Shown here one piece after another: positions 4,533 through 35,254 of a DNA stretch of 64,000 nucleotides (the first letter of the stretch is position 1; every line of letters begins with the position of its first letter). Under the pieces are notes generated by a model. That model did not search any database. It was not told where the DNA came from and saw only the letters and a program-made list of their open reading frames with translations. The DNA lies in contig JAYUKZ010000066.1 of the NCBI GenBank assembly GCA_043763995.1, forward strand, positions 722-64,721. The letters are read 5' to 3'. Position numbers and translations under genes: made by a program. The DNA comes from Fibrella sp. (GTDB taxonomy: Bacteria > Bacteroidota > Bacteroidia > Cytophagales > Spirosomataceae).

Positions 4533-6581
4533 TCAGTTTACTGGTAAAAATAGCACGGCATCGGCCACGGTGGGCTGCTTGGCTTCGGTAGCCGTAATTT
4601 CTACGAAGGGTGCGGCCCCTGTCTTTACCACATACGTACCCAGGTTAAGCCAGTCGTTGTTATGAAGTTGCTGATTGACAGATACTTTCCAATTTTTTCC
4701 TCCGTCGAAAATACGTACCTGAACCGCTTCGGCCTTGTCGGTCTGCACTCCAACCTGATCGGGGTTGCCGCCGCCGCCCTGCCGCGTGGGGTTGTAGAGC
4801 AGCACCCGATAGCGGCCCGGCAACAGGCCCGCCGCCGTGAACCGCACCGCTCCCGTGCCCGCGCTGACCAACGCCGAGGTGCCGTATTTGCCGCCCTTCA
4901 TAACGCGCTCCCACGTACCTGTGGTTTGAACGGCTTTGCTGTCGTCGTTATCCAAAAGGCGTTCAGGTCGGCTTCCGTTCAGCATTGGGTTGTTGCGCAG
5001 GGTACGTTGTAGTTGTGCTATGTCAATTCGCTGTACCGTCACGTTTTGGTCGATGGCCTGTGCCGCTGCCATTGCCGCGCTTTGGGCCAGCACCATAAAC
5101 ACCGGTTCCATACGGATGCTGCCGTAGGCAATGTGGCTCGCCGAGAGGCACACCGGTACCAGCAGGTTGCTGATTTCGCGCGTTTTGGGCACCAACGCCC
5201 GGTAGCTGATGGGGTACGGCCCGAAGCCCCCCACCTGCACGTCGCCCTCATTTTGCACCGTTGGCACACCGGTTGCGTTGCGCACCACCAGCCGCTGGCA
5301 ATTGTGCGAATCCATGGTGTAGGCGGCCATCCCGATGCCGTCAGGTACGTTCAGGCTGCCCTCGCAGTTAGCCTGCGTCATTACGTATTCGCCCACCATG
5401 CGCCGGGCTTCGCGGATATACAGTTGGTGCGAAAAATGCTGATTATCAGCGTATTCGTCTTTCGGATAGCCCCAGCGAAGCATCTCGTTGCGGAGATGAA
5501 GGGGCATTCGCGGGTCGTGGCCGATGAAATAAAACAACCCTTTGGTATAATCCTCGTGCGCCCGGATAATCTGCGCCCGTTCGGCATACGAAGCCTCTGG
5601 GTACGTATGATTGGCCCCGATCATATCGGTCGAGAAGCCGCCGCAGTTATTGATGTCGGTTTTGCGGTTGGGCATCGCCACAAAGTGCATCAGGTTCCAG
5701 GTTAGTTCGGTGGCTGCTTTTTGCCGAAGTTGCCGCAACAGCAATTCATATTTCGTGGAATCGTAGCGGTCGGGGCGGGCAATGGGCACCCGGTTGGCCG
5801 GATCGTCGGTGAGGCACATCCGGTAGTTGTAGGCCTGAACGGCCCGGTCGCCGGTACCGTTGGGGGGCAATGTATCGGAGCCGATGCCCCACAGCAGCCC
5901 CGATTCGGGGTGGCCAGGTACGTTGTAGGGGTCAACCCCGTCAGGGAATTGGTGTTTGTTGTGGTGTTGAACGCCATTCCAGGTTTCGCCGTATTGGGCG
6001 TTGGCTTCGCGGCCCACGGCGTAGCTCACGCCCGCCTGTGCCATTAGGTCGCCCTCATACGAGCAATCGATAAACTGTTTGGCCCGGACGGCGCGGCTCT
6101 CCGCTCCCCCACTTGCCGGTTCGAGGGTGATGGCCGTGAGGCGGTCGCCGGTTTTTTGCACGGCCCGGAGGCGGTAGTTCATCAGCGGCGTGATTTTCGC
6201 TTCGCGCAGGTACGTTCGGAAGACATTTTCGGCTACATGCGGCTCAAACGTCCACTGCTCCAGATGGCCGTACTGGGTGCCGATGCGCCGGTAAAAGTCC
6301 CGCGCCAGGCCCGTCACGGCCATTTTATTGCCAATGTCGGTGGCTCCCAGCCCGCCCGCGCTCAGCCCGCCCAGGTGGTTTCCAGGTTCAATAAGTACCA
6401 CCGTTTTGCCCAACCGGCTGGCCGAGACCGCCGCCATTACCCCTGCCGACGTGCCGCCATACACGCAGATATCGACCATAATGGGCTGGGCGTGAAGGGG
6501 GAAGGAGAAGAGGAAGGAAAGGAGGAAGGAGGGGAGGGGGAAGGAGGAAAAGGGGGGTAGGAGGGGAAGGAAACGTTTCAT
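4533..6581 (-). CDS. Secreted FAD-dependent oxidoreductase with C-terminal golvesin/xanthan-lyase-like domain
   Basis: Signal peptide; [15 protein letters not shown]; [12 protein letters not shown]; [10 protein letters not shown]; C-terminal ADAVLF. Confidence 0.8.
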
Positions 6582-6592
6582 GGAGTTGGGCC

Positions 6593-7282
6593 TTACAAAA
6601 TGTGCATTGCTTCCCGCCAGTGGGCAATGGTGTAGGTGGCTGGTTCGGGTGTGGTTTCGCCGCTGGGGTTGTAGAAAACCGTGTCCAGCCCCACGGCTTT
6701 GGCCCCCAGAATATCGGCTTCGTAATTGTCGCCCAGCATCAGGCTTTGGCTTGCCGTGGCGTTGCTTTCCCGGAGGGCATACCCGAAAATACGCGGGTCA
6801 GGTTTTTTAGCATTGGCCGATTCGGTCGTGACCACCAGATCGAAATAATGGTCAATCTCCGACGAAGCCATCTTAACCCCTTGAATGTCAGCAAATCCGT
6901 TGGTGATGATGTGCATCGTGTACCGGCCTTTAAGGTGCTCCAGCACCTCGCGGGCCGACTCCAGGAGGTGGGTTTTTCGGGGCAATAGCCGCAGGTATTC
7001 GGTGTTGAGGTCGGCGCAGCCCGTGGTGTCAGTTACGCCCAATGCCCGCAGCACCATCGGGAAACGGTGTTCGCGGATGTACTCGTGCCCGATCCGGTTT
7101 TGGTCGTAATCGCGCCAGAGTTGGCGGTTGATACGGATAAACTCCTGGGCAAAGATTGCTGCTGACACCACGCCCCGGTCGGCCAGGCGGTGGGTGTCAA
7201 ACAGTTCGGCAATCGATTCGGATGAGTTGCGGTCGAAATCCCAGAGCGTGTGGTCGAGGTCGAAAAAAAGGTGTTTATACAT
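6593..7282 (-). CDS. YjjG-family HAD nucleotidase
   Basis: FFDLDHTLWDF, ITNGF, KKPDPRIF, MLGDNYEADILGA. Confidence 0.9.
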   Translation of the reverse strand: MYKHLFFDLDHTLWDFDRNSSESIAELFDTHRLADRGVVSAAIFAQEFIRINRQLWRDYDQNRIGHEYIREHRFPMVLRALGVTDTTGCADLNTEYLRLLPRKTHLLESAREVLEHLKGRYTMHIITNGFADIQGVKMASSEIDHYFDLVVTTESANAKKPDPRIFGYALRESNATASQSLMLGDNYEADILGAKAVGLDTVFYNPSGETTPEPATYTIAHWREAMHIL

Positions 7283-14258: not shown

Positions 14259-14846
14259 ATGAGAGATACAGTGCCAACACTGACCACCGACGAGACGTTG
14301 TTGTTGGGCCTTGCCGAAGGCTCAGATCAGGCCCTTACCAGGCTTTACCAACTACATTACCCGATGGTGTTGCACCTGGTGGTGAACAACAGCGGCTCTA
14401 CCGACGACGCAAAAGACATTTATCAGGAAACCCTGATTGTACTGTTTGAAAAGGTATCTGCGGGCGATTTTGAGTTGAATTGCCAGTTGAAAACCTTTCT
14501 CTACGCCGTGGCGAAGCGGTTATGGTTGAAACAGTTGACCCGGCGGGGGCGGTCGCCGCTGATTCGGGCCACGCAGTTTGAAGAAGAACCGGCTGATGCC
14601 GTGGCTGATGATCTGGCTGATCATTTGCGGCGCGATCAGCAGTTTGACCAAATGGCCGAATCCTTGACCCGGCTGGGTGAACCCTGCCGGACGTTGCTGG
14701 AAGATTTTTACATCCGTCACTTGTCAATGCAGGGCATCACGGAGAAATTTGGGTATACCAACACCGATAACGCCAAGACGCAGAAGTATAAGTGTCTGGC
14801 TCGGCTAAGGAAATTATTTTTTGCCGATTATAAAGACAACGACTAA
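14259..14846 (+). CDS. ECF RNA polymerase sigma factor
   Basis: DAKDIYQETLIVL, TFLYAVAKRLWLKQL, LGEPCRTLLEDFY, AKTQKYKCLARLRK. Confidence 0.92.
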   Translation: MRDTVPTLTTDETLLLGLAEGSDQALTRLYQLHYPMVLHLVVNNSGSTDDAKDIYQETLIVLFEKVSAGDFELNCQLKTFLYAVAKRLWLKQLTRRGRSPLIRATQFEEEPADAVADDLADHLRRDQQFDQMAESLTRLGEPCRTLLEDFYIRHLSMQGITEKFGYTNTDNAKTQKYKCLARLRKLFFADYKDND

Positions 14847-26916: not shown

Positions 26917-27571
26917 CCAGCAACGTACCTGAGGGTTGATGGGGAGCGGACCGAGCCTTTACATCCTTCGATGATTGGTTGTTGATGGATAAAGCAAGAT
27001 AGCCAAAACACACGTACCACACTAACCTTTACACACTCAGTTCGTTGGTCATCCCAACGTCGCATACCCATGTGCTGCCTGTCCGACGTAACCCGCCCAT
27101 TCAGATAAAAACCTTTTTGAGTAAGTATATGCTCAAACCGAAAACACTCAGACACACATTAAGAATGATAGCAAACCCTCCATTTGTATCGGCTGGAACG
27201 TTATGACCTGAGCCGTAAACCGCGACCTAAAAAAACGAGAAAAATAAAAAGGCTATTACTGATAGCGTTTTTATAATCCGAAAAGTGAGTCGCATGGCAG
27301 GTTTGATTCTGGTCAGGTATGTCGCTGTTGAACGAGCCGGGCTTGTCGGACGCGGTCGCCGACTCAATCAGGTACGTTGTCAGACGAGTTTATTTTGTCG
27401 AGCGAGACCACGGAATGGAAGCAAAAGAGGTTGAACAATAAGCTATTTACCTTCTCGCCCGCGACCCGAACTCGGAAGCATTACTTCGCCGAGGCCCAAC
27501 GATGGTTGGGCGCATCAACGTTGGGCTCATGAGTACTGTATATCTGCCACAACCTGCCCATACGGAGTGTT

Positions 27572-27739
27572 TTAAGCCTGCGACGAAGGTTTCCGAGTCG
27601 GCAGTTTTGCGTTTTTGAGCAACTCTTTAGCCCTGGCTAACTTCTCAGGAAATAGTACCTGACCTTCATAACGGTCCAATTCAGGGTTGATCTGTACGGC
27701 TGGTACTTTCTTGTTGCTGAGTTTTTGAACATGTTCCAT
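27572..27739 (-). CDS. 55-aa small protein absent from the ORF track, partner of the upstream DUF6934-like gene
   Basis: Manual translation MEHVQKLSNKKVPAVQINPELDRYEGQVLFPEKLARAKELLKNAKLPTRKPSSQA*; starts 9 nt after the upstream stop; LFPEKLA.A..L motif recalled from Bacteroidota small proteins. Confidence 0.75.
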   Translation of the reverse strand: MEHVQKLSNKKVPAVQINPELDRYEGQVLFPEKLARAKELLKNAKLPTRKPSSQA

Positions 27740-27748
27740 AGTTTTGAG

Positions 27749-28195
27749 TCAGTTTAACTTTCGTAGAACCATAAAGCCTATATACTCTCTACCAACCTCA
27801 AATTGGTGAAATTCGTCACCAACCTGGCCATAAAGCTCAAAGTCCTGAATCACCTCCTCATAGAAACGAGTAATACCCATCCGATAGAGCCGAGTGCGAG
27901 CCGTTGTACTTCCGGTGGCGTACACGTATGCTTCGGGGTAGCTATTGAAGAATGCGTACAGCGCAGCTACTACGGTAGCCAACACCTTCTGGGTGTCGCT
28001 GTTGTTCGACACAGCCAAATCGTCAATCTCGCCAGTTTTCTCGTCTTTGTTGCCAAAAGCAAGGTTATAGATGGGGGACTGATTGATCTGTTGGAACTGA
28101 ATTAGTTTGGGAATTGAGCCGTTCGGCCCTTGGCTAAAAAACTCGAAAACGGTTAAATTGCTCTGTGCTTCAAGTGGATACCTCTCCAGATTCAT
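27749..28195 (-). CDS. DUF6934-like protein
   Basis: FEFFSQGPNGSI.K.IQF, YNLAFG, DTQKVLATV, YATGST..RTRLYRMGI (family assignment from memory). Confidence 0.75.
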   Translation of the reverse strand: MNLERYPLEAQSNLTVFEFFSQGPNGSIPKLIQFQQINQSPIYNLAFGNKDEKTGEIDDLAVSNNSDTQKVLATVVAALYAFFNSYPEAYVYATGSTTARTRLYRMGITRFYEEVIQDFELYGQVGDEFHQFEVGREYIGFMVLRKLN

Positions 28196-28357
28196 ACCGC
28201 TAAAGTAACGAAAAAGGGGTTGCCTTTAGCCCAACTTTGGCTTGTCAGACGCGCCTGTTGTATTCCCATCAACTAGTACTGTCGGAAATTTCGAGTTTTC
28301 AGCAACGTACCTGAGAGCCAGCCCGTTGCGAAATTTGTTGGCAATTTTGGGGGCAGG

Positions 28358-28390
28358 TTTGTAAATAAGCCGGTCGGGTGCCTATCTTTG
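28358..28390 (+). promoter_or_regulatory. Bacteroidota sigma-A promoter of tRNA-Val
   Basis: -33 TTTG at 28358-61, 21-bp spacer, -7 TATCTTTG at 28383-90. Confidence 0.65.
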
Positions 28391-28423
28391 TAGCATCAAC
28401 CTCCAGCCGGAGAGCGACAGTAA

Positions 28424-28498
28424 GGGGGTTTAGCTCAGTTGGTTCAGAGCATCTCGTTTACACCGAGAGGGTCGGCGGTTCGAGCCCGTCAATCCCCA
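28424..28498 (+). tRNA. tRNA-Val(TAC)
   Basis: Cloverleaf: acceptor GGGGGTT/AATCCCC, D arm GCTC/GAGC, anticodon arm TCTCG-TTTACAC-CGAGA, T loop TTCGAGC; CCA not encoded. Confidence 0.96.
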
Positions 28499-28543
28499 CA
28501 GAAAGTTAAAAAACCCCGCTGAGACGCTCTCAGCGGGGTTTTT
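28486..28543 (+). repeat. attL (tRNA 3' end plus terminator hairpin 28509-28543)
   Basis: ccgtcaatccccaca-gaaagtta-aaaaaccccgctgagacgctctcagcggggttttt. Confidence 0.9.
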
Positions 28544-28641
28544 GCTTTTTACTTATCAACTTACGTGCCTGTGGTCAACTTATGTAATAATAACGAAAAC
28601 GCTTGTTAGAATTAATTGTAAACAGAGCAGAGATTTTTAAG

Positions 28642-29895
28642 TCACTCCATCTGTTTGTTTTTCTCGTCTAAATCTTCAGAAGGTGTAAAATACTCTACTA
28701 TTTTTATAATGCCTAGAGTTGGTCCAAACATAGCGAAGCTAAAACATTTTAGTGGTATTTCAGCCCTGTATTTTGATTTGTAAATCTCTATTTCTTGTTC
28801 TAGTAGATTAGCATTCATTTCGACTAGATTGAATTTTAATTTATACAAATATATATGCCGTACAATTTTGGAGCTATTACCTAAATGTATATTACAAAGT
28901 GCCATAGTTGTATCCTCTTTTCTTGAAATTTCTTCTAAATATGAATCATAATATTTAAGATTGTTTTTAAATATTTGTTTGTTTCTGTCAAATTTTAAAG
29001 AATCCAATTTTTTTGTTAGAACTATTTTATTGTTCGCCATTTTAGTCATCAACTCTCCAGACATAGTAGCGTTTGATATGGCAACATCGAAGTAATCAAA
29101 ACATTTATTACTCTTTATCTTGTCAGACAAGTATACATAATTTCCGTCAGTTCTTTTGTCTAACTTATAATAAACTTTGTAACAAGGGACTTTTCTGTAT
29201 GAACTCTCATCTAGTAAATTATTTACATTATTCCATTCTTTGTAAGGCTCATCGGATTCAATAAGGTCATCCCATTTCTCCGAAAGAAAAGTGTCAAAGC
29301 TAAACAGCGAGTACACTATCACAATAGCAGATACAATCACGTTGTATGAAAACACAACAGACAAAAACCAAGTAAACATCTGCTTTAAATTATTAAACAA
29401 AAGATAACCAAAATAAATAATCCTATACACTGATAATAAGACTATCAATAAATTAGATAGAAAATACCATTCATATTCTTGAGTTTTTAGATAAATATAA
29501 TAAGGAAAAAAAGCAAATGGTGTTATAAACATTACTGTGCAAATAATAAAAAATATGTATCTCACGATAATTATTTTCAAATTAAAATTTTTCTTAAATA
29601 TCTTATTTGAAAAAATTACCGTGAAAATTATAGGAATTAAATCAATGGTAGTTTGAAAAAGCAAAATAATGTATAGCTTCTGTGCAATAGGCCTTATCTC
29701 AAGTCCAGTCAAGACATAAGTAAAACAAATGAAGAACACAGTATAGAAAGCCAATTGCTTCCACTGTTCGTCTTCATCTTTAATGAACATGTTATTATAA
29801 AACTTATTTTGGTCACTAAAATAGTCTGCTAACTCCTTGATGTAAGACCAAGAGTTGGCTCCGAAAATCTTCAAGAAACTCTGTAATTCTTCCAT
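28642..29895 (-). CDS. AT-rich cargo membrane protein of unknown function
   Basis: 417 aa uninterrupted ORF, strongly AT-rich; ~5-6 hydrophobic segments in residues ~45-200, charged C-terminal half. Confidence 0.75.
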   Translation of the reverse strand: MEELQSFLKIFGANSWSYIKELADYFSDQNKFYNNMFIKDEDEQWKQLAFYTVFFICFTYVLTGLEIRPIAQKLYIILLFQTTIDLIPIIFTVIFSNKIFKKNFNLKIIIVRYIFFIICTVMFITPFAFFPYYIYLKTQEYEWYFLSNLLIVLLSVYRIIYFGYLLFNNLKQMFTWFLSVVFSYNVIVSAIVIVYSLFSFDTFLSEKWDDLIESDEPYKEWNNVNNLLDESSYRKVPCYKVYYKLDKRTDGNYVYLSDKIKSNKCFDYFDVAISNATMSGELMTKMANNKIVLTKKLDSLKFDRNKQIFKNNLKYYDSYLEEISRKEDTTMALCNIHLGNSSKIVRHIYLYKLKFNLVEMNANLLEQEIEIYKSKYRAEIPLKCFSFAMFGPTLGIIKIVEYFTPSEDLDEKNKQME

Positions 29896-30031
29896 TCCGA
29901 GGTTACAAATGATGTGTGTTGATGCGCTGAAGAGGTAAAATTAGGTTAATTTTGGTAGTATATAGTATGCTATTTGGTAAAAAATTCAGTAAATTTACAG
30001 TACATCAAGCAGTAAATCAAACGGTAAAACC

Positions 30032-30430
30032 ATGATAATTCAATCTGTTTCTAACTGTACGGTATGTGGTAATGAGTTCCCGTACCGTAAAAGCAAACAG
30101 TTCTGTTCTAACGCTTGTAAGCAACAAGCATACCTTAAAAGTAAAGCGGGCATTCCCCTACAGGGTTCAAGCCGCAAGGAAATGCCCACTACTGACTTTA
30201 GCTTCACTGAATTTGCTCAATTCAGTGAAGAACATGGTAACTATCATTCTTTCCTGTTCTATTGTTTCTTACGGCGCAATCTGAGCAAGTTAGCGACAGT
30301 AGACACAATTTACCAGTACATCAATAGCTTCTTTATTGAAGATGATGCATATGAAAAGATTACAGGCTCAAAGGCGTATCAAACGTTTAGAGAGGAGTTC
30401 TTGAGCGCAAAATTCACAGTTGGCCCGTAG
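30032..30430 (+). CDS. Small protein with N-terminal CxxC...CSxxC zinc finger
   Basis: CTVCGNEFPYRKSKQFCSNACKQQAY; convergent with and overlapping the primase 3' end by 17 nt. Confidence 0.7.
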   Translation: MIIQSVSNCTVCGNEFPYRKSKQFCSNACKQQAYLKSKAGIPLQGSSRKEMPTTDFSFTEFAQFSEEHGNYHSFLFYCFLRRNLSKLATVDTIYQYINSFFIEDDAYEKITGSKAYQTFREEFLSAKFTVGP

Positions 30431-31292
30431 ATCGTTGGCAAAGCATTTCGTTGAAATCTTTGAATCCTTTGTAGATCGTTGAAAAGTCGATTACGGTAGA
30501 CGTTACCGACTTTATTGTTTCTTGCGCTCTGCGGCCTGTTTTATCCAGATCAAAGAACGTACTAACCCGGCTGTATCGCTTGATGTCGGGTAGTGCTTTG
30601 TCCAGATTCGATAATGAGTTTAGAACAATGACAGAAGCAGGGAACGTTTGCTTGTTGTAATATTCCAAAGCAGAGAGGTAATCAAAGAAGCCTTCAAAAA
30701 CTAGGAGCGTACCGGATTCATTAAATGAAAATGTAGAAATCGTTTTCGGGGCAAATGAGCCTTTAAAATATTGATTCCGTACTTCGTATCCACCGGCATC
30801 ATTTGGGAAGCCTACAGCGAAGTATTTCTTGTTGTTGGTCCGGTAATGAATCTCCCGCAAGTGCCGTGAATATACCTTGCGCGAAATACCCCGCTTTTCA
30901 ACGTATTGTATCAATGCTTGATGTTGGAGCGGTTTAACGTCATTGATGGTCACGCCCGAACTTTCGGCGGTTGGAGAGTAACCGCTAAAAGAAAAGGAAT
31001 TTTTTGGGTCATCTTTCAAAAACGGCTCAAGCTGAGTAACCGCCTCAAGGAATGTGCAGCCGGTTAGATGTTGTACCAGTGAAAGTACATCTCCCTTACC
31101 CTCTCCGCTCCAATCAAAGAAAACGTTCTTGTCAGGATTCACGGCCAATGAAGGGCTTTTTTCATTGGTCTTAGGTGAGCAATAGAAATACTGATTTCCG
31201 GCTCTGTAAGCGGGCATAATGCCCCGACTGGTCAGATAGTCAACAATGGGTATTTGTTTGACTTGTTGAATGATGTGGGCCTCTTTTTGCAC
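30414..31292 (-). CDS. Primase-like protein (degenerate CHC2-type N-domain plus toprim)
   Basis: IPIVDYL, SPKTNEKSPSLAV, FFDWS.GKGDV; toprim VFEGFFDYLS, VLNS, FFDLDKTG, FKDFNEML. Confidence 0.85.
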   Translation of the reverse strand: MQKEAHIIQQVKQIPIVDYLTSRGIMPAYRAGNQYFYCSPKTNEKSPSLAVNPDKNVFFDWSGEGKGDVLSLVQHLTGCTFLEAVTQLEPFLKDDPKNSFSFSGYSPTAESSGVTINDVKPLQHQALIQYVEKRGISRKVYSRHLREIHYRTNNKKYFAVGFPNDAGGYEVRNQYFKGSFAPKTISTFSFNESGTLLVFEGFFDYLSALEYYNKQTFPASVIVLNSLSNLDKALPDIKRYSRVSTFFDLDKTGRRAQETIKSVTSTVIDFSTIYKGFKDFNEMLCQRSTGQL

Positions 31293-31340
31293 GTCTTTTT
31301 TCTTTTAGCGGTATACCGTCTCCGACTCTCCCGCAAACAC

Positions 31341-31554
31341 CTTACTACGTTACTACTCTACTACGATTACAGCTAATTGACTGGTAATCAATCTATCTTC
31401 TGTAGTAGGGCATATACAGTGTAGTAGGGCTATTCGGGGAAATGTAGTAGGGTAAACCAGTTTGTAGTAAGTAAAAAAACCTAACCCTACTACGATTCAA
31501 CTAACTATAAATCAATGGCTTACAATTAATTGTAGTAATGTAGTAGGGTTAGGT
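31341..31554. promoter_or_regulatory. Candidate iteron replication origin of the element
   Basis: 10 GTAGTA hexamers (6 +, 4 -); TGTAGTAGGG at 31401, 31420, 31443, 31539; 15-bp perfect inverted repeat 31479-93 / 31540-54 around an AT-rich spacer. Confidence 0.7.
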
Positions 31555-31561
31555 CTGAAAC

Positions 31562-32818
31562 CTATTGGTTTATGGAACCGGTCAACGTCTGAGAAACCCA
31601 GTAGCCTTTAACCGGATAATCACCACCGGGCCGTCGGGCAGTTATCTGTTCATAGCCTAGCAAGACCAACGCTTTACCAATGTTGTTGTCATTGATTCTG
31701 ATCTTACCTTCTGTCAGAATGGTAAGCCGCCTTGTGATCTCCGTAGCCGTTAGGAACTCCGCTTTCGGATTGCTCTTTGCGTCCGACTTGCCAACCGGCA
31801 AAAAGTAGTGGTTTAGCAGGTCAATTTCCGCCGTAGTGCGTTGGTGTCGGCGGTTGTTGCCTTCTGACCGCTCCAATTCGTCGCGGGTCATTTCAAAGGC
31901 GTACCCATCTTGGAGCAAGGCGTAAGCTTGCGCCCACACCTTGTTAATATCGACATTGGCCCCGTAGCCATTGGCCCCGCCTAAATCGTGCTTGATGCCC
32001 TCTGTTTCAAACACCAACCAACGCACGTTACCCGTTACGTCGGTGAGAAATTCATTTTGGTTGGTGCTACCCAAAAAGCTTGCCCGCCGTTGTATTTGGG
32101 TTTCCCGTTCGGCATAGGGTCGCCGAATCTTGACCCGTTCCTCTGTCAGATAGGCTTTAAATTTATTGGTATCTGATTTTGACAGTGAGGACAGTTCATC
32201 AAGATTAATGAGGATGTTTTCACCCAGCGCGATACGTCCGTCTTTGTTTTCAAAGTCGATGTTCTCTTTGTAGTAGTCCCTCAAAGCGGGGGGACAGAGA
32301 AAGCGGAGAAACGACGTTTTACCGTCATTCTGCTTGCCATACAGCACGAAACATTGCTTGTTGAACTTTGCCCGTCCGATAGCGCAAGCAACGGTTCTAA
32401 CAAGCATTTTCCTGAACATGAGGCCGAACCACTGAGCATCCTGAACGATCACGTAAGAGGCCAACTCCGCTATGTAGTCCGGTTGGGTTTTGTCCCATTG
32501 TGGTAAGCCATCGAAGTACTCATTGAACGGGTCATATTCGGGGATGAAGTCAGACCGTAGCAGAGCCTTTTGTTGGTCTTTGAAACGGTTAAACCCCTTT
32601 TCGTATAACTCTCTGTTGATGTTGTTTTCGTTCAACTCCCGAAAGTCGGGTTCGTTGGTTGCCCTATACTGTAAGACGTTGGAAACCACGTCAAGACGGA
32701 ATTCATACCGGGGGGTAAGATATTCCTGTAGACGCACGATCATTGGAACCTGTTCGCTTTGAGCAGGTTTATTCTTATGTATATTTGTCATTGTCAATGC
32801 CTTAAATACTTGTTTCAA
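31562..32818 (-). CDS. VapE (virulence-associated E)-type P-loop ATPase / replicative helicase candidate
   Basis: Walker A GKQNDGKT, LINLDEL, RRPYAER, RRASFLGSTNQNEFLTD.TGNVRWL; start TTG 32818 or ATG 32791. Confidence 0.87.
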   Translation of the reverse strand: MKQVFKALTMTNIHKNKPAQSEQVPMIVRLQEYLTPRYEFRLDVVSNVLQYRATNEPDFRELNENNINRELYEKGFNRFKDQQKALLRSDFIPEYDPFNEYFDGLPQWDKTQPDYIAELASYVIVQDAQWFGLMFRKMLVRTVACAIGRAKFNKQCFVLYGKQNDGKTSFLRFLCPPALRDYYKENIDFENKDGRIALGENILINLDELSSLSKSDTNKFKAYLTEERVKIRRPYAERETQIQRRASFLGSTNQNEFLTDVTGNVRWLVFETEGIKHDLGGANGYGANVDINKVWAQAYALLQDGYAFEMTRDELERSEGNNRRHQRTTAEIDLLNHYFLPVGKSDAKSNPKAEFLTATEITRRLTILTEGKIRINDNNIGKALVLLGYEQITARRPGGDYPVKGYWVSQTLTGSINQ

Positions 32819-32847
32819 AATCGGTTTGCCGCCGTGACTGAGACTAT

Positions 32848-32887
32848 AAGCCCCCTCACTATTTGCCGTAGTAAGGGGGCTTTTTTG
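32848..32887 (+). terminator. Hairpin with plus-strand T run between integrase and vapE
   Basis: aagccccct...agggggctttttt. Confidence 0.55.
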
Positions 32888-32894
32888 ATGGGTT

Positions 32895-34124
32895 TTATGT
32901 CATGTTGAATTTGCGTTTAGCCAGATCATTCATTTCACGCACTACTGTTGTTTCCATTGTCACGGCGTAATGTTTGGCGGTGGTGGTGAAAGACGAATGA
33001 CCTAAGATGGATTGAAGGGCAACGGGCGTAACCCCGTTGTTCACAAAAAACGTAGCCGCCGATTTGCGGCCTACGTGTGTCGTTAGATGCTTGGAAATGC
33101 CACACATTCCCGCTATCTCCTTGAGATAGTTGTTCATCTTCTGATTCGATATGAGGGGTATTAATTTGCCGTATAGCTCGCAGTAACCCCACCCTTTGTA
33201 CTTCTCAATGAGGGCCAACGCGGGGGGTAAGAGCGGGATAATACAAGGTGCCTGGGTCTTCTGTCGCTTGATGCGTAAGCAGGTCATACCGTCAATAGTA
33301 GTCAGGCAATCTTTAGTGGCTTCGTGTAGGTCAGTGTAAGCCAGCCCCGTATAAATCTGGAACATGAACCCGTCTCTAACCAAGCTGAATGTATCGTTAT
33401 GGAAATGAAAAGCTCTTAGCTTCTCTATCTCCATTTCGTCCAAGTAAACGATGTTTACCCGGTTATGCTTTAACCGGACATTACGGAGCGGGCTACGGGC
33501 TATATGCTCCGAATCTTCTGCCAGATTAAGCACTCGCATAGCTATACGAACGACCTTGTTAGCGTAGCTCTGCGAGTAATTCTTACCCCTCATGTATGTC
33601 GTTACATCGGCCACAAAAACCGGCTTAATTTCGCCTAACCGCAGATTCCAGTTACCCGAATCTTTCAGATAATCCAACAACCGATAGTGGGCCGTAATCA
33701 CGGCTTTCAGGGTTTCTTTCGTCGTGACTTTACCCGTTTGTTCCCGGTAACGCTCAACCATTTGAGTAAGAAGCTCTCTAAACAGCGGTGTCTTTTCAGT
33801 GTAGCCCGCTTGCTTCATTACCATTTCTGAGAGTCGGTTTAGATCAACGGCTTCACCCGACAAGCTTACCTTACTGAACGCTTGCTCAAAGTTGGATTTA
33901 ATGCTTTGTAGCAACTGAGTAGCGGGTACGTTACCCACTACTGAGAACTCCTTTGTATTCAGTTCATCGGCCTTGCAATAGATGCCCGAATGAACGCCCT
34001 TAGATTGGCCGTTGAACTTGATTTCAAACATGATAGGAGCCAACCCTTGCGCGTTTTCGGCCTGTTTACGCCGCCAACAAATGACCCTAAAGGGCTTGAT
34101 TCGATTCGTTTTGGTAGTCGTCAT
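32895..34124 (-). CDS. Tyrosine recombinase/integrase (Bacteroidota Arm-SAM-catalytic type)
   Basis: FMFQIYTGLAYTDL, IKRQKT, NQKMNNYLKEIA, HLTTHVGRKSAAT, LGHSS..TT.KHYA. Confidence 0.95.
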   Translation of the reverse strand: MTTTKTNRIKPFRVICWRRKQAENAQGLAPIMFEIKFNGQSKGVHSGIYCKADELNTKEFSVVGNVPATQLLQSIKSNFEQAFSKVSLSGEAVDLNRLSEMVMKQAGYTEKTPLFRELLTQMVERYREQTGKVTTKETLKAVITAHYRLLDYLKDSGNWNLRLGEIKPVFVADVTTYMRGKNYSQSYANKVVRIAMRVLNLAEDSEHIARSPLRNVRLKHNRVNIVYLDEMEIEKLRAFHFHNDTFSLVRDGFMFQIYTGLAYTDLHEATKDCLTTIDGMTCLRIKRQKTQAPCIIPLLPPALALIEKYKGWGYCELYGKLIPLISNQKMNNYLKEIAGMCGISKHLTTHVGRKSAATFFVNNGVTPVALQSILGHSSFTTTAKHYAVTMETTVVREMNDLAKRKFNMT

Positions 34125-34174
34125 GTATAGGTATTGGTTTGGCCCCATATCGTATTAATATGGAGCTTGAGTTG

Positions 34175-34384
34175 TTAAATCAGTTCGTTTACAGGTACGT
34201 TGAAGACTTCTGCAAGTCTCTTGATTTCATCCGAGTTGGGTTTAAGCTTACCCACTCGTAGCATACCCCAACGTTTTTGGTTGATACCGGTACGGCTATA
34301 GAACCGTTCGTCGAACTTGACACTAAGGCCAATTTTTTCCTCAAATCCCTGAACGGCTAAACTAATAGGTGTCTTCATGTGCAT
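34175..34384 (-). CDS. Small Cro/excisionase-like HTH protein
   Basis: 69 aa with an HTH-like C-terminal half (TGINQKRWGMLRVGKLKPNSDEIKRLAEVFNVPVNELI); divergent from the XRE gene. Confidence 0.7.
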   Translation of the reverse strand: MHMKTPISLAVQGFEEKIGLSVKFDERFYSRTGINQKRWGMLRVGKLKPNSDEIKRLAEVFNVPVNELI

Positions 34385-34525
34385 TATTTTTGTCTGTAAG
34401 TGTGATATTGATGATGCAAAGATTGTTATTAATCACATAATGTGCAAATATTGATAACAATAGGGTCAAATTATTTCCTTTGCATCTCATTATCAATGCG
34501 TTACTTTGCAAAAAACTCACACTTG

Positions 34526-35020
34526 ATGTTAGAAATAGATGTATCCAAGCGTATTAAGACCATCCGGGAGCGGAATGGGCTAACGCAAACAGACGTAGCG
34601 GATAAACTTGGTATGGAACGTAGCAACTACAGCCGTTTAGAAAAGAGGGGTAACGATCTATCCATTAATCAACTACTTCAAATTGCTAATGCTCTGGATG
34701 TTAGGTTGATAGATATACTTTTTCCGCTAGAGATAGACGCAATCCGTAAGGGGGGAATGAATACTATAAAACTACAGGGAGTTGTCCAAGAGCTACAAAA
34801 GCGGAATGACTATTTAATTGAGAATCAAAGAAAGATGGAAGTGATAATGAGCTTTATGATGGAGTTTGCAAAAGGAGTAGAGGGGTTTGGTATCACTGAG
34901 GATGTTTTCAGAAGACAGCTTGACCCAGAAGGTAAGTTAGAGATATGGGCCAAGAGCAAAGCTGCCGATCTATTAAAGGAGCTTAACGATCCTGAGCAGG
35001 ATTCCGACAATGTAGATTAA
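34526..35020 (+). CDS. XRE-family HTH repressor
   Basis: IKTIRERNGLTQTDVADKLGMERSNYSRLEKRG..LSINQL.QIANALDV, then a coiled-coil-like C-terminus; alternative start at 34496. Confidence 0.88.
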   Translation: MLEIDVSKRIKTIRERNGLTQTDVADKLGMERSNYSRLEKRGNDLSINQLLQIANALDVRLIDILFPLEIDAIRKGGMNTIKLQGVVQELQKRNDYLIENQRKMEVIMSFMMEFAKGVEGFGITEDVFRRQLDPEGKLEIWAKSKAADLLKELNDPEQDSDNVD

Positions 35021-35196
35021 GTACTAGCTGACTTACGTAAGTCAGATTAGCTTACGCTTGATATTCAGCCGGTTACGTCGTAGTTCCTCTCTTTACATAT
35101 ATTGCGCTACAAATCTTACGTACCAATCAACTGACTTATTAATCAGTAAGGCTATTAACCTGTTCATTATTAGAGCGTTACAAATTCAGTTCGTTA

Positions 35197-35254
35197 CCGT
35201 CAATCCCCACAAAACGTTTAAAAACCCCGTTGAGACGCTCTCAGCGGGGTTTTT
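35197..35254 (+). repeat. attR
   Basis: ccgtcaatccccaca-aaacgttt-aaaaaccccgttgagacgctctcagcggggttttt. Confidence 0.9.

Follow-up and report, generated by a model that had tools for sequence, protein, structure and literature searches.

Satellites that carry no packaging genes of their own have precedents in the PICMIs of the Vibrionaceae (PMC10803314), the virion-encapsidated integrative mobile elements (VEIMEs; PMC9618062) and the StCIs (PMC13376191). Tycheposons, described from Prochlorococcus and other marine bacteria, bring modular cargo to tRNA genes (bioRxiv 10.1101/2020.12.28.424599), and larger phage satellites are known as P4-like satellites and PICIs (PMC10085698; PMC9122126). In the SatelliteFinder study more than 99.9% of the PICIs belonged to Proteobacteria and Firmicutes, and its text does not mention Bacteroidota (PMC10085698). 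Here we describe a small element from that phylum. The window, by which we mean the whole stretch of 64,000 nucleotides that was analysed (contig JAYUKZ010000066.1), was placed in a Fibrella-like member of the Spirosomaceae, in agreement with the Cytophagales host proposed in an earlier, sequence-only reading. At its sole tRNA gene (ARAGORN, Rfam) it contains what is, in our judgement, probably a 6,711-bp integrative and replication-competent element that carries defence cargo and is specific for the 3′ end of tRNA-Val(TAC). By analogy, it would work most like a PICMI or a cargo-carrying tycheposon.

The likeness to PICMIs lies in their size of about 6 kb, in a core made of integrase, regulator and DUF5906-type primase/helicase, in the absence of capsid and packaging genes and in a small accessory and defence hotspot with fast turnover beside the attachment site (PMC10803314). 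Both the integrase family and DUF5906 were matched in the window element, the latter on its VapE-like protein (E values in the table below). The AlpA regulator of PICMIs (PF05930 / PF12728) was not found: no open reading frame (ORF) matched AlpA or HTH_17, and an XRE/HTH_3 protein and a weak HTH_19 match are present instead. Additionally, PICMIs sit next to fis and belong to a different phylum, whereas the window element sits in tRNA-Val(TAC) and has helicase and primase as separate genes with the origin between them. Helper-phage induction and concatemer packaging have been shown for PICMIs (PMC10803314), and VEIMEs are defined by concatemers from virus particles.

With tycheposons the window element shares a tyrosine recombinase, integration at a tRNA 3′ end with a partial copy of the tRNA, primase/helicase genes (including VirE-type ones in tycheposons), modular cargo adjoining the tRNA, and tandem copies and relics that build islands. 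The cargo differs, being mostly nutrient-acquisition genes or terS/MCP in tycheposons and defence genes in the window family. Moreover, what defines tycheposons is a separate integrase clade together with a set of hallmark genes, in which neither an XRE/Cro switch nor an iteron origin figures, and we liken them to the window element by description only. P4-like satellites and PICIs, of which the window element has about half the size, also have an integrase, a repressor-type switch, a primase-helicase with an iteron origin and diverse anti-phage hotspots; the block of integrase, regulator and primase-replicase is shared with PICIs and cfPICIs as an analogy of function, not as a match to SatelliteFinder profiles. 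Their packaging and capsid functions (terS, capsid morphogenesis, head-tail connectors) gave no PHROG head or packaging match, and the P4-like core (Psu, Delta, Sid, Epsilon, AlpA) had no match in Pfam, PHROGs or NCBIfam. Tailed Bacteroidota phages carry terminase, portal, head and tail genes, unlike the window element, in whose 6.7 kb neither Pfam nor PHROGs detected virion structural, packaging or lysis genes. The sequence-only reading had described an element devoid of relaxase and virion genes. Indeed, searches of Pfam, PHROGs, NCBIfam and PADLOC assigned none of the element's ORFs to a family of relaxases, terminases, capsid proteins or lysis proteins, and the relaxase-type histidine (His-triad) motif is absent from every frame.

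The att duplication at tRNA-Val, from which the sequence-only reading had predicted an excised circle of about 6711 bp, was confirmed by the position of the tRNA gene and by the repeats, and its boundaries by an assembled empty site. A direct repeat of 66 nt (28478-28543 and 35189-35254, 89% identical) was located with a copy spacing of 6711 bp by a repeat finder. It consists, in this order, of GTTCG, three mismatches (AGC in attL, TTA in attR), an identical core of 15 nt, CCGTCAATCCCCACA, that forms the tRNA 3′ end (copies at 28486-28500 and 35197-35211), and a terminator hairpin in which four positions differ between the copies. The tRNA is identical to tRNA-Val of Fibrella aquatica, and a hairpin of the same type follows the tRNA at attL in three other loci (L001, L002, L109). 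The hairpin at attR (35220-35254) is also of the type of the element family, unlike the native terminators after the same tRNA in Fibrella species (F. aquatica), and the empty allele in the metagenome has it too. It is therefore probably the scar of an earlier family member, and the 66-nt duplication would then be the core plus this scar. The element has a GC content of 40.8%, compared to 53.5% for the window, in which no other strong low-GC island occurs. The motif CTTACGT has eight copies in the window, four of them within 200 bp of the att ends, and the candidate sites AACTTACGT / AACTTATGT lie at 28557-28590, inside the first of two cargo slots; by their clustering near both ends, the CTTACGT copies there are candidate integrase arm sites as well.

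Direct evidence for mobility comes from the source itself, a biofilm metagenome, of which one public run (X1) has 99% of the element's sampled 31-letter words. Unitigs of this run break exactly at both att copies. Their depth is 163.7 in the left flank (up to 28475) and 148-181 in the right flank, and drops within the element to 56.2 (28471-34870) and 53.9 (34841-35226). Another unitig, 45 nt long with a depth of 97, consists of GTCGGCGGTTCGAGC followed by window positions 35197-35226: it joins the intact 3′ end of the tRNA to the attR side, and is an exact substring of the attB predicted from the core. As the depths of 56 and 97 roughly add up to that of the flanks, the element is present in about one third of the population and the site is precisely empty in two thirds. 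A precise empty site thus coexists with the occupied site in one population. Over the 10 kb that we compared in this run only one minor variant was seen, the flanks being otherwise nearly invariant, which indicates that the gain or loss of the element is recent. A second organism (depth about 36) is also present in the run, as seen from contigs at 28423-28491 and 35220-35254; its tRNA-Val is related, and its terminator hairpin resembles that of the window. Three metagenome contigs of 6-7 kb (L014-L016) were considered as excised circles and rejected, as they have no terminal overlap; one of them, L016, ends in att repeats and is therefore an integrated copy whose ends the assembler cut off. 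Just upstream of the tRNA, a 1.5-kb stretch of lower GC (26917-28423, about 0.46-0.47) separates it from an outer-membrane-protein gene and contains a DUF6934 gene (27749-28195, minus strand) and a 55-aa ORF; the gap between these two genes measures about 130-350 nt in most of 57 related Spirosomaceae loci (maximum about 760). Because this stretch shares the unitig and depth of the chromosome, it lies outside the element.

The sequence-only reading had named seven ORFs, and all of them are present in the order it gave. It had also judged them intact, and all seven are full length compared to their homologues, with catalytic motifs kept; the starts of VapE and of the XRE protein were corrected. 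VapE has a Walker A (GKQNDGKT) and a Walker B motif (ILINLDE), the primase retains the Toprim residues E200 and D248xD250, and in the integrase H358xxR361 and H384 are invariant, with the tyrosine within AKHY. The VapE ORF extends to 32818, and M10 is probably its start. The protein is 83% identical to its counterpart in Fibrivirga, 74% in Spirosoma and 71% in Larkinella. The XRE protein probably starts near MRYFAKN, as judged by alignment with six relatives, downstream of the mechanical ORF start at 34442. Pfam found no S24 peptidase domain in it, and LexA-type self-cleavage is therefore unlikely as a trigger. The 69-aa HTH protein that opens the leftward operon is highly conserved: six related copies have it, with a mean column identity of 78% and the motif GINQKRWGML. 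It may act as a directionality factor as well. A scan for sigma-70 promoters was uninformative, with 14 seen and 16 expected; Bacteroidota promoters differ from that consensus.

Features of the element in the tRNA-Val(TAC) gene, with positions in the 64,000-nucleotide window
Feature	Position	Strand	Evidence
tRNA-Val(TAC), integration target, 3′ end rebuilt by the element	28424..28499	+	ARAGORN; Rfam tRNA 65 bits
attL core CCGTCAATCCCCACA, presumed crossover region	28486..28500		15-nt identical run in 66-nt repeat; exact junction of the empty-site unitig
Terminator hairpin supplied by the element to the rebuilt tRNA, within the extended att repeat	28509..28543	+	16-bp stem + T run
Variable cargo slot 1, tRNA-proximal hotspot	28556..29960		Homology to relatives ends at 28555, returns near 30011-30050
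Cargo gene, 417-aa membrane protein, candidate anti-phage gene	28642..29895	-	GC 28.5%; no family match
Zn-ribbon protein, 132 aa (C9, C12, C25, C29), clade-specific accessory gene	30032..30430	+	Weak DUF2116 treble-clef match
DnaG-like primase (degenerate CHC2 N-domain + Toprim)	30414..31292	-	Toprim_2 7e-11; Zn_ribbon_DnaG 2.5e-10; PHROG DNA primase
Putative replication origin	31293..31561		Iteron enrichment, conservation, adjoins VapE
VapE/D5-like SF3 helicase, presumed origin-binding initiator	31562..32791	-	VapE-like_dom 1e-35; DUF5906 4e-10; PHROG DNA helicase 3e-55
Tyrosine integrase, Bacteroidota type (arm-binding, SAM-like, catalytic domains)	32895..34148	-	Phage_integrase (PF00589) 3e-12; Phage_int_SAM_5; Arm-DNA-bind_5; PHROG integrase 3e-32
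69-aa Cro-like HTH protein, first gene of leftward operon	34175..34384	-	Weak HTH_19 match
Divergent regulatory region, inverted TTGATGATGCAAAG / CTTTGCATC..ATCAA motifs, candidate operators	34385..34495		Read from sequence; predicted function
XRE-family repressor candidate (HTH + ~90-aa C-terminal helical domain)	34496..35020	+	HTH_3 8e-12; PHROG repressor/regulator
Slot 2, empty in the window copy; candidate integrase arm sites CTTACGT x3 incl. palindrome TGACTTACGTAAGTCA	35021..35188		Sequence motifs
attR: degenerate tRNA 3′ mimic 35189-35196, core 35197-35211, element-type terminator 35220-35254	35189..35254		Repeat comparison; empty-site unitig has this side

The array of repeats noted earlier between helicase and primase proved highly enriched, with five exact copies of GTAGTAGGG at 31402-31548 where 0.27 would be expected in the whole 64 kb, and more degenerate and inverted copies in the same gap. 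Inverted CTACTAC iterons (31333-31365) are followed by direct GTAGTAGGG iterons (31402-31452) and by a perfect inverted repeat of 15 nt (31479-31493 / 31540-31554) around an AT-rich spacer of 46 nt; the 19-nt double iteron TTGTAGTAATGTAGTAGGG lies at 31529-31547, and the DNA fold of the region has a z of -4.9. Fibrivirga and Larkinella match the region position by position, so that with the window it is conserved in three genera. We scanned the double iteron, as TTGTAGTAATGTAGTARGG, against one genome per species and against IMG/VR, and found 26 and 6 loci, respectively, with about nine chance matches estimated for the genome collection. In 27 of these 32 loci, spread across Bacteroidota, a VapE gene ends just upstream of the double iteron, and outside the close family the encoded proteins are 29-45% identical to VapE of the window. 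One of the loci (L023, 58-10256; IMG/VR UViG 3300047325_000022, 43.6 kb) is a genuine tailed-phage contig with terS, terL, portal, head and neck genes. Behind its VapE-type primase-helicase, direct and inverted GTAGTAAGG iterons lie in the same arrangement, the exact 19-mer TTGTAGTAATGTAGTAAGG among them. The closest phage homologues of VapE, with 35-36% identity, belong to Flavobacterium and Cellulophaga phages.

At least 16 of the loci are from Bacteroidales (Prevotella, Porphyromonas, Tannerella, Phocaeicola and Hoylesella among the genera; for example L020, L027, L028, L034 and L040) and read integrase ... VapE, iterons, primase, Mob_Pre relaxase, which we take to be the layout of NBU1-type elements. 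Their Bacteroidota-type integrase, VapE and Toprim primase are homologous to those of the window element, and the same 19-nt double iteron lies 3′ of VapE. Unlike the window element, they have a Mob_Pre (MOBV) relaxase after the primase and, upstream of the relaxase gene, about 200 nt of very highly conserved sequence; this is the usual place of a MOBV oriT, and we presume that it is one. They are without the XRE/Cro pair of the Spirosomaceae, and their VapE and primase are only 31-35% identical to those of the window. The mob-proximal region has no similarity in the window element, which may still have an unrelated oriT, the Mob protein of L020 found no match by tblastn in the window or the Spirosomaceae loci, and Pfam detected no relaxase in the window element nor, at E up to 0.05, in its Cytophagales relatives. 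We conclude that the iteron region is the likely replication origin recognised by VapE, common to phages and integrative elements of the phylum, and that the window family would be a relaxase-less branch that gained an XRE/Cro-type switch. Given the homology of its replication module to Bacteroidales mobilisable elements and to a phage, the window element appears as a Mob-less offshoot of a phylum-wide replicon.

Other identities for the iteron region were considered and rejected. As an oriT it would not be expected to be kept in a genuine phage, or to lie apart from the conserved mob-proximal region. A structured RNA found as its only Rfam match mir-991, at 27 bits against a threshold of 100, and the arms of the hairpin are the iterons themselves, which as a hairpin are not kept in the Bacteroidales relatives. 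A known plasmid replicon was also dismissed, VapE proteins on plasmids reaching at most about 33% identity over most of the protein (one partial match, 38.8%). As to the primases, those of the whole clade, Bacteroidales relatives included, match the CHC2 zinc-ribbon profile with the Cys/His ligands absent; in the subclade of the window, a 4-Cys Zn-ribbon is encoded separately, by a gene on the opposite strand that reaches into the 3′ end of the primase gene. This Zn-ribbon protein belongs to a family of 13 members confined to the clade of the window element, and its gene is not part of a universal core, since it is missing in two related loci (L009 and L010). Its N-terminus and upstream DNA are the best conserved part among relatives (86% between Fibrivirga and Larkinella, compared to about 68% elsewhere). 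The non-coding stretch at 29960-30031, upstream of the gene, holds five or six (C/G)AGTAAA repeats and could act in cis.

At E up to 1e-40, 523 homologues of VapE were found, with many Spirosomaceae proteins among them, and the survey of tRNA-Val loci suggested by the sequence-only reading did uncover the same backbone with swapped cargo in relatives. XRE / Cro-like, integrase, VapE, iteron origin and primase follow one another in the same gene order in all five related loci, with 66-76% nucleotide identity of the backbone in Fibrivirga and Larkinella. The element occupies tRNA-Val(TAC) in Fibrivirga algicola (L001), Larkinella punicea (L002), Fibrella aestuarina (L013) and a metagenome contig (L010). 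In Spirosoma sp. KCTC 42546 (L009) two copies adjoin each other, both with the same att core at their ends; the tRNA itself is located beyond the stretch examined there, and the site would be the same. Cultured carriers are therefore at hand in Fibrivirga algicola JA-25, Larkinella punicea ZZJ9, Spirosoma sp. KCTC 42546 and Fibrella aestuarina. Homology breaks down at two slots: slot 1 reaches from the tRNA-proximal terminator to the end of the primase, slot 2 from XRE to attR. In the relatives, slot 1 is filled by a Drt8 reverse transcriptase (3e-134) with a partner, PDC-M36 A/B/B (PDC-M36A/B, 3e-222), ApeA, a SmaI-like restriction-modification (RM) pair or a BstXI-like RM pair, and slot 2 by an HD-CE/GHKL ATPase (twice), TIR and NACHT-sigma, a SIR2/ThsA-like protein with a partner, or a 952-aa NACHT protein. 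Judging from this gene content, the cargo position is a defence-gene hotspot.

Occupancy is low. We surveyed 80 loci that share the upstream outer-membrane-protein gene, and in 57 of these tRNA-Val(TAC) comes next. For 39 species representatives the sequence continues for 10 kb or more downstream; of these 39, Larkinella punicea alone has the backbone, which makes the family rare and patchy. In Fibrivirga algicola (NZ_WAEL01000001; L001, L053) two tRNA-Val(TAC) genes are separated by about 18 kb; the copy with linkage to the outer-membrane-protein gene is empty, and the other bears the element. In L010 the element is flanked by tRNA-Val(TAC) and tRNA-Val(CAC) genes (6525-6600; 14317-14392). 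The tandem elements of Spirosoma sp. KCTC 42546 (CP041360; L009 3927-19245) have backbones 95% identical over 2.9 kb, are separated by an att core and an element-type terminator, and jointly carry TIR, NACHT-sigma, the SmaI-like RM pair and SIR2. In the closest relative, an uncultured Fibrella metagenome-assembled genome (L050 10975-13940), tRNA-Val is followed by an element-type terminator, arm-like repeats, a HEPN/RES gene and two unknown genes before the housekeeping genes begin; integrase, helicase, primase and a second att core are all absent at this tRNA-Val, and the HEPN/RES genes look like the stranded cargo of a lost element.

In the window copy, slot 1 holds the gene for a 417-aa membrane protein and nothing else. 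A word-indexed search of 5.8 billion proteins returned only the protein itself, and an exhaustive HMMER search of 1.84 billion representatives found 19 remote relatives (22-34% identity), nearly all of like length. Their alignment shows five invariant residues (N185, D201, E220, P237, R304) and a conserved LKFxRNK motif. Modelling from the single sequence was unusable (pLDDT 41), and an alignment of 18 sequences was therefore used, for which AlphaFold2 gave a pLDDT of 82.7 and a pTM of 0.78; the model has a bundle of about five long, mostly hydrophobic helices, then a C-terminal alpha/beta domain. Because the slot otherwise holds defence genes, an anti-phage role is the best guess, and we predict an effector of the abortive-infection type. 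Weighing against a defence role, the protein has no family match in Pfam, PHROGs, NCBIfam or PADLOC, neither PDB nor BFVD gave a significant match to its fold (lowest E values 1.0 and 0.17; query-normalised TM-scores at most 0.19), and its association with defence is by position only.

Taken together, these data suggest a possible cycle. The XRE repressor would silence the leftward operon from the 111-bp divergent region until a signal, by analogy most likely a protein of an infecting phage, lifts repression. The integrase would then recombine attL with attR in the 15-nt core and restore an intact tRNA-Val, perhaps with help from the 69-aa HTH protein and with CTTACGT arm sites as a guide. VapE would bind the GTAGTAGGG iterons, which adjoin the 3′ end of the vapE gene, and open the AT-rich spacer, and the Toprim primase would prime synthesis by the host polymerase, as suggested by the intact motifs and by an origin conserved beside VapE across the phylum, even in a genuine phage. 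The element, which encodes no transfer function, could spread by carriage in phage particles or by release through phage lysis, as in minimalist satellites, and the host would gain the cargo.

Among the possible routes between cells, induction or carriage by a phage, or both, on the pattern of PICMIs, VEIMEs and StCIs, receives by analogy the largest single share of our expectation, short of a majority; passive routes that involve no specific hijacking come out as less likely, conjugation in trans as unlikely, and the rest falls to an element that is no longer mobile. The sequence-only reading had seen here the replication module and switch of a satellite. This holds for the parts, namely an integrase-bounded element with a divergent XRE/Cro-like switch, a helicase-origin-primase module and swappable cargo; its further suggestion of a minimal phage satellite found no support in a helper, a packaging signal, similarity to phage DNA or an excess in copy number. 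Several results weigh against our interpretation. Neither a helper phage nor a cos/pac site or terS was found for the window element, the whole element had no blastn match in 50,697 phage genomes, and a protein scan of IMG/VR with the VapE alignment did not find the close family, returning one distant match of 30%. No unitig of run X1 holds the circular junction (the predicted attP, ...CAGTTCGTTACCGTCAATCCCCACAGAAAGTTAAAAAAC...), although contigs drop rare variants, and since the element is also less deep than the chromosome, no excised or replicating form is detectable in this one sample. Moreover, the occupied and empty sites could belong to two co-existing strains rather than reflect ongoing excision, and the repressor and operator assignments and the function of the origin are predictions. 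The element might be a decayed prophage or an immobile remnant that is merely polymorphic between co-existing strains, with phage-like replication genes, no visible circle junction and a depth below one copy per chromosome. We regard this as very improbable: no gene or catalytic motif is damaged, the empty site is precise to a single base, remnants of structural genes are absent, and the persistence of one compact backbone in four or more genera, each time with other cargo, requires purifying selection as well as repeated transfer.

The sequence-only reading had also suggested an element mobilised entirely in trans. This could be an integrative mobilisable element moved by conjugation, for which a resident conjugative element supplies relaxase and mating pore to an unrecognised oriT. 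The homology of the VapE-iteron-primase module to the Bacteroidales elements, with their relaxase directly after the primase, speaks for it. No positive support emerged, however: every Spirosomaceae or Cytophagales relative examined is, like the window, without relaxase, the conserved mob-upstream region has no trace here, and the presence of the iterons in a genuine phage argues for an oriV rather than an oriT. Conjugation genes were not noticed in the 64-kb window, which was not searched exhaustively for them. We therefore hold conjugation in trans to be improbable, both as an account of the element and as its transfer route. Less easily set aside, yet still doubtful, is a cargo shuttle with no dedicated transfer route, comparable to a tycheposon or an integrated plasmid, that would move by vesicles, transformation or generalised transduction, or mostly vertically, and leave its cargo at the tRNA. 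It would agree with the relics at the same site (the attR terminator scar and the HEPN/RES cargo of L050 without a backbone), with the two adjacent copies in L009, with the sparse occupancy among the species representatives and with the island-building model of tycheposons (bioRxiv 10.1101/2020.12.28.424599). StCIs have been demonstrated to move by way of competence (PMC13376191). A tight XRE/Cro switch and a dedicated high-copy replication module are hard to explain by such a shuttle, unless an induction event pays off in transfer. Returning to phage-dependent transfer, a bolder and unlikely version of it is that these islands are the first Cytophagales phage satellites and act by origin mimicry: a phage with GTAGTA iterons and VapE would fire the origin of the island, or the island helicase would occupy the origin of the phage, and the orphan membrane cargo would be an anti-phage effector with a new fold. 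If this were true, sensing, amplification, interference and concatemer packaging would all follow from one shared cis-element, with no need for a packaging gene.

We found no description in the literature of a phage-satellite family, or of a comparable small defence-carrying element, in Bacteroidota or Cytophagales. The family of the window element is thus apparently undescribed so far and possibly the first of its type in Bacteroidota. Small integrase-primase defence islands are already known. The finding would interest specialists to a moderate degree, and considerably more if it could be demonstrated that the element depends on a phage or brings a new defence function. With a backbone of at most seven genes, an integration site known to the base, a natural polymorphism between occupied and empty sites and relatives in several cultured strains, the family offers a tractable model. 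Its slots already contain at least eight different known or candidate defence systems, and the orphan cargo genes found there, the 417-aa membrane protein included, are therefore good candidates for new ones. Finally, one replication origin that appears common to phages, conjugatively mobilisable elements and defence islands would point to the re-use of a single replicon across different modes of spread.

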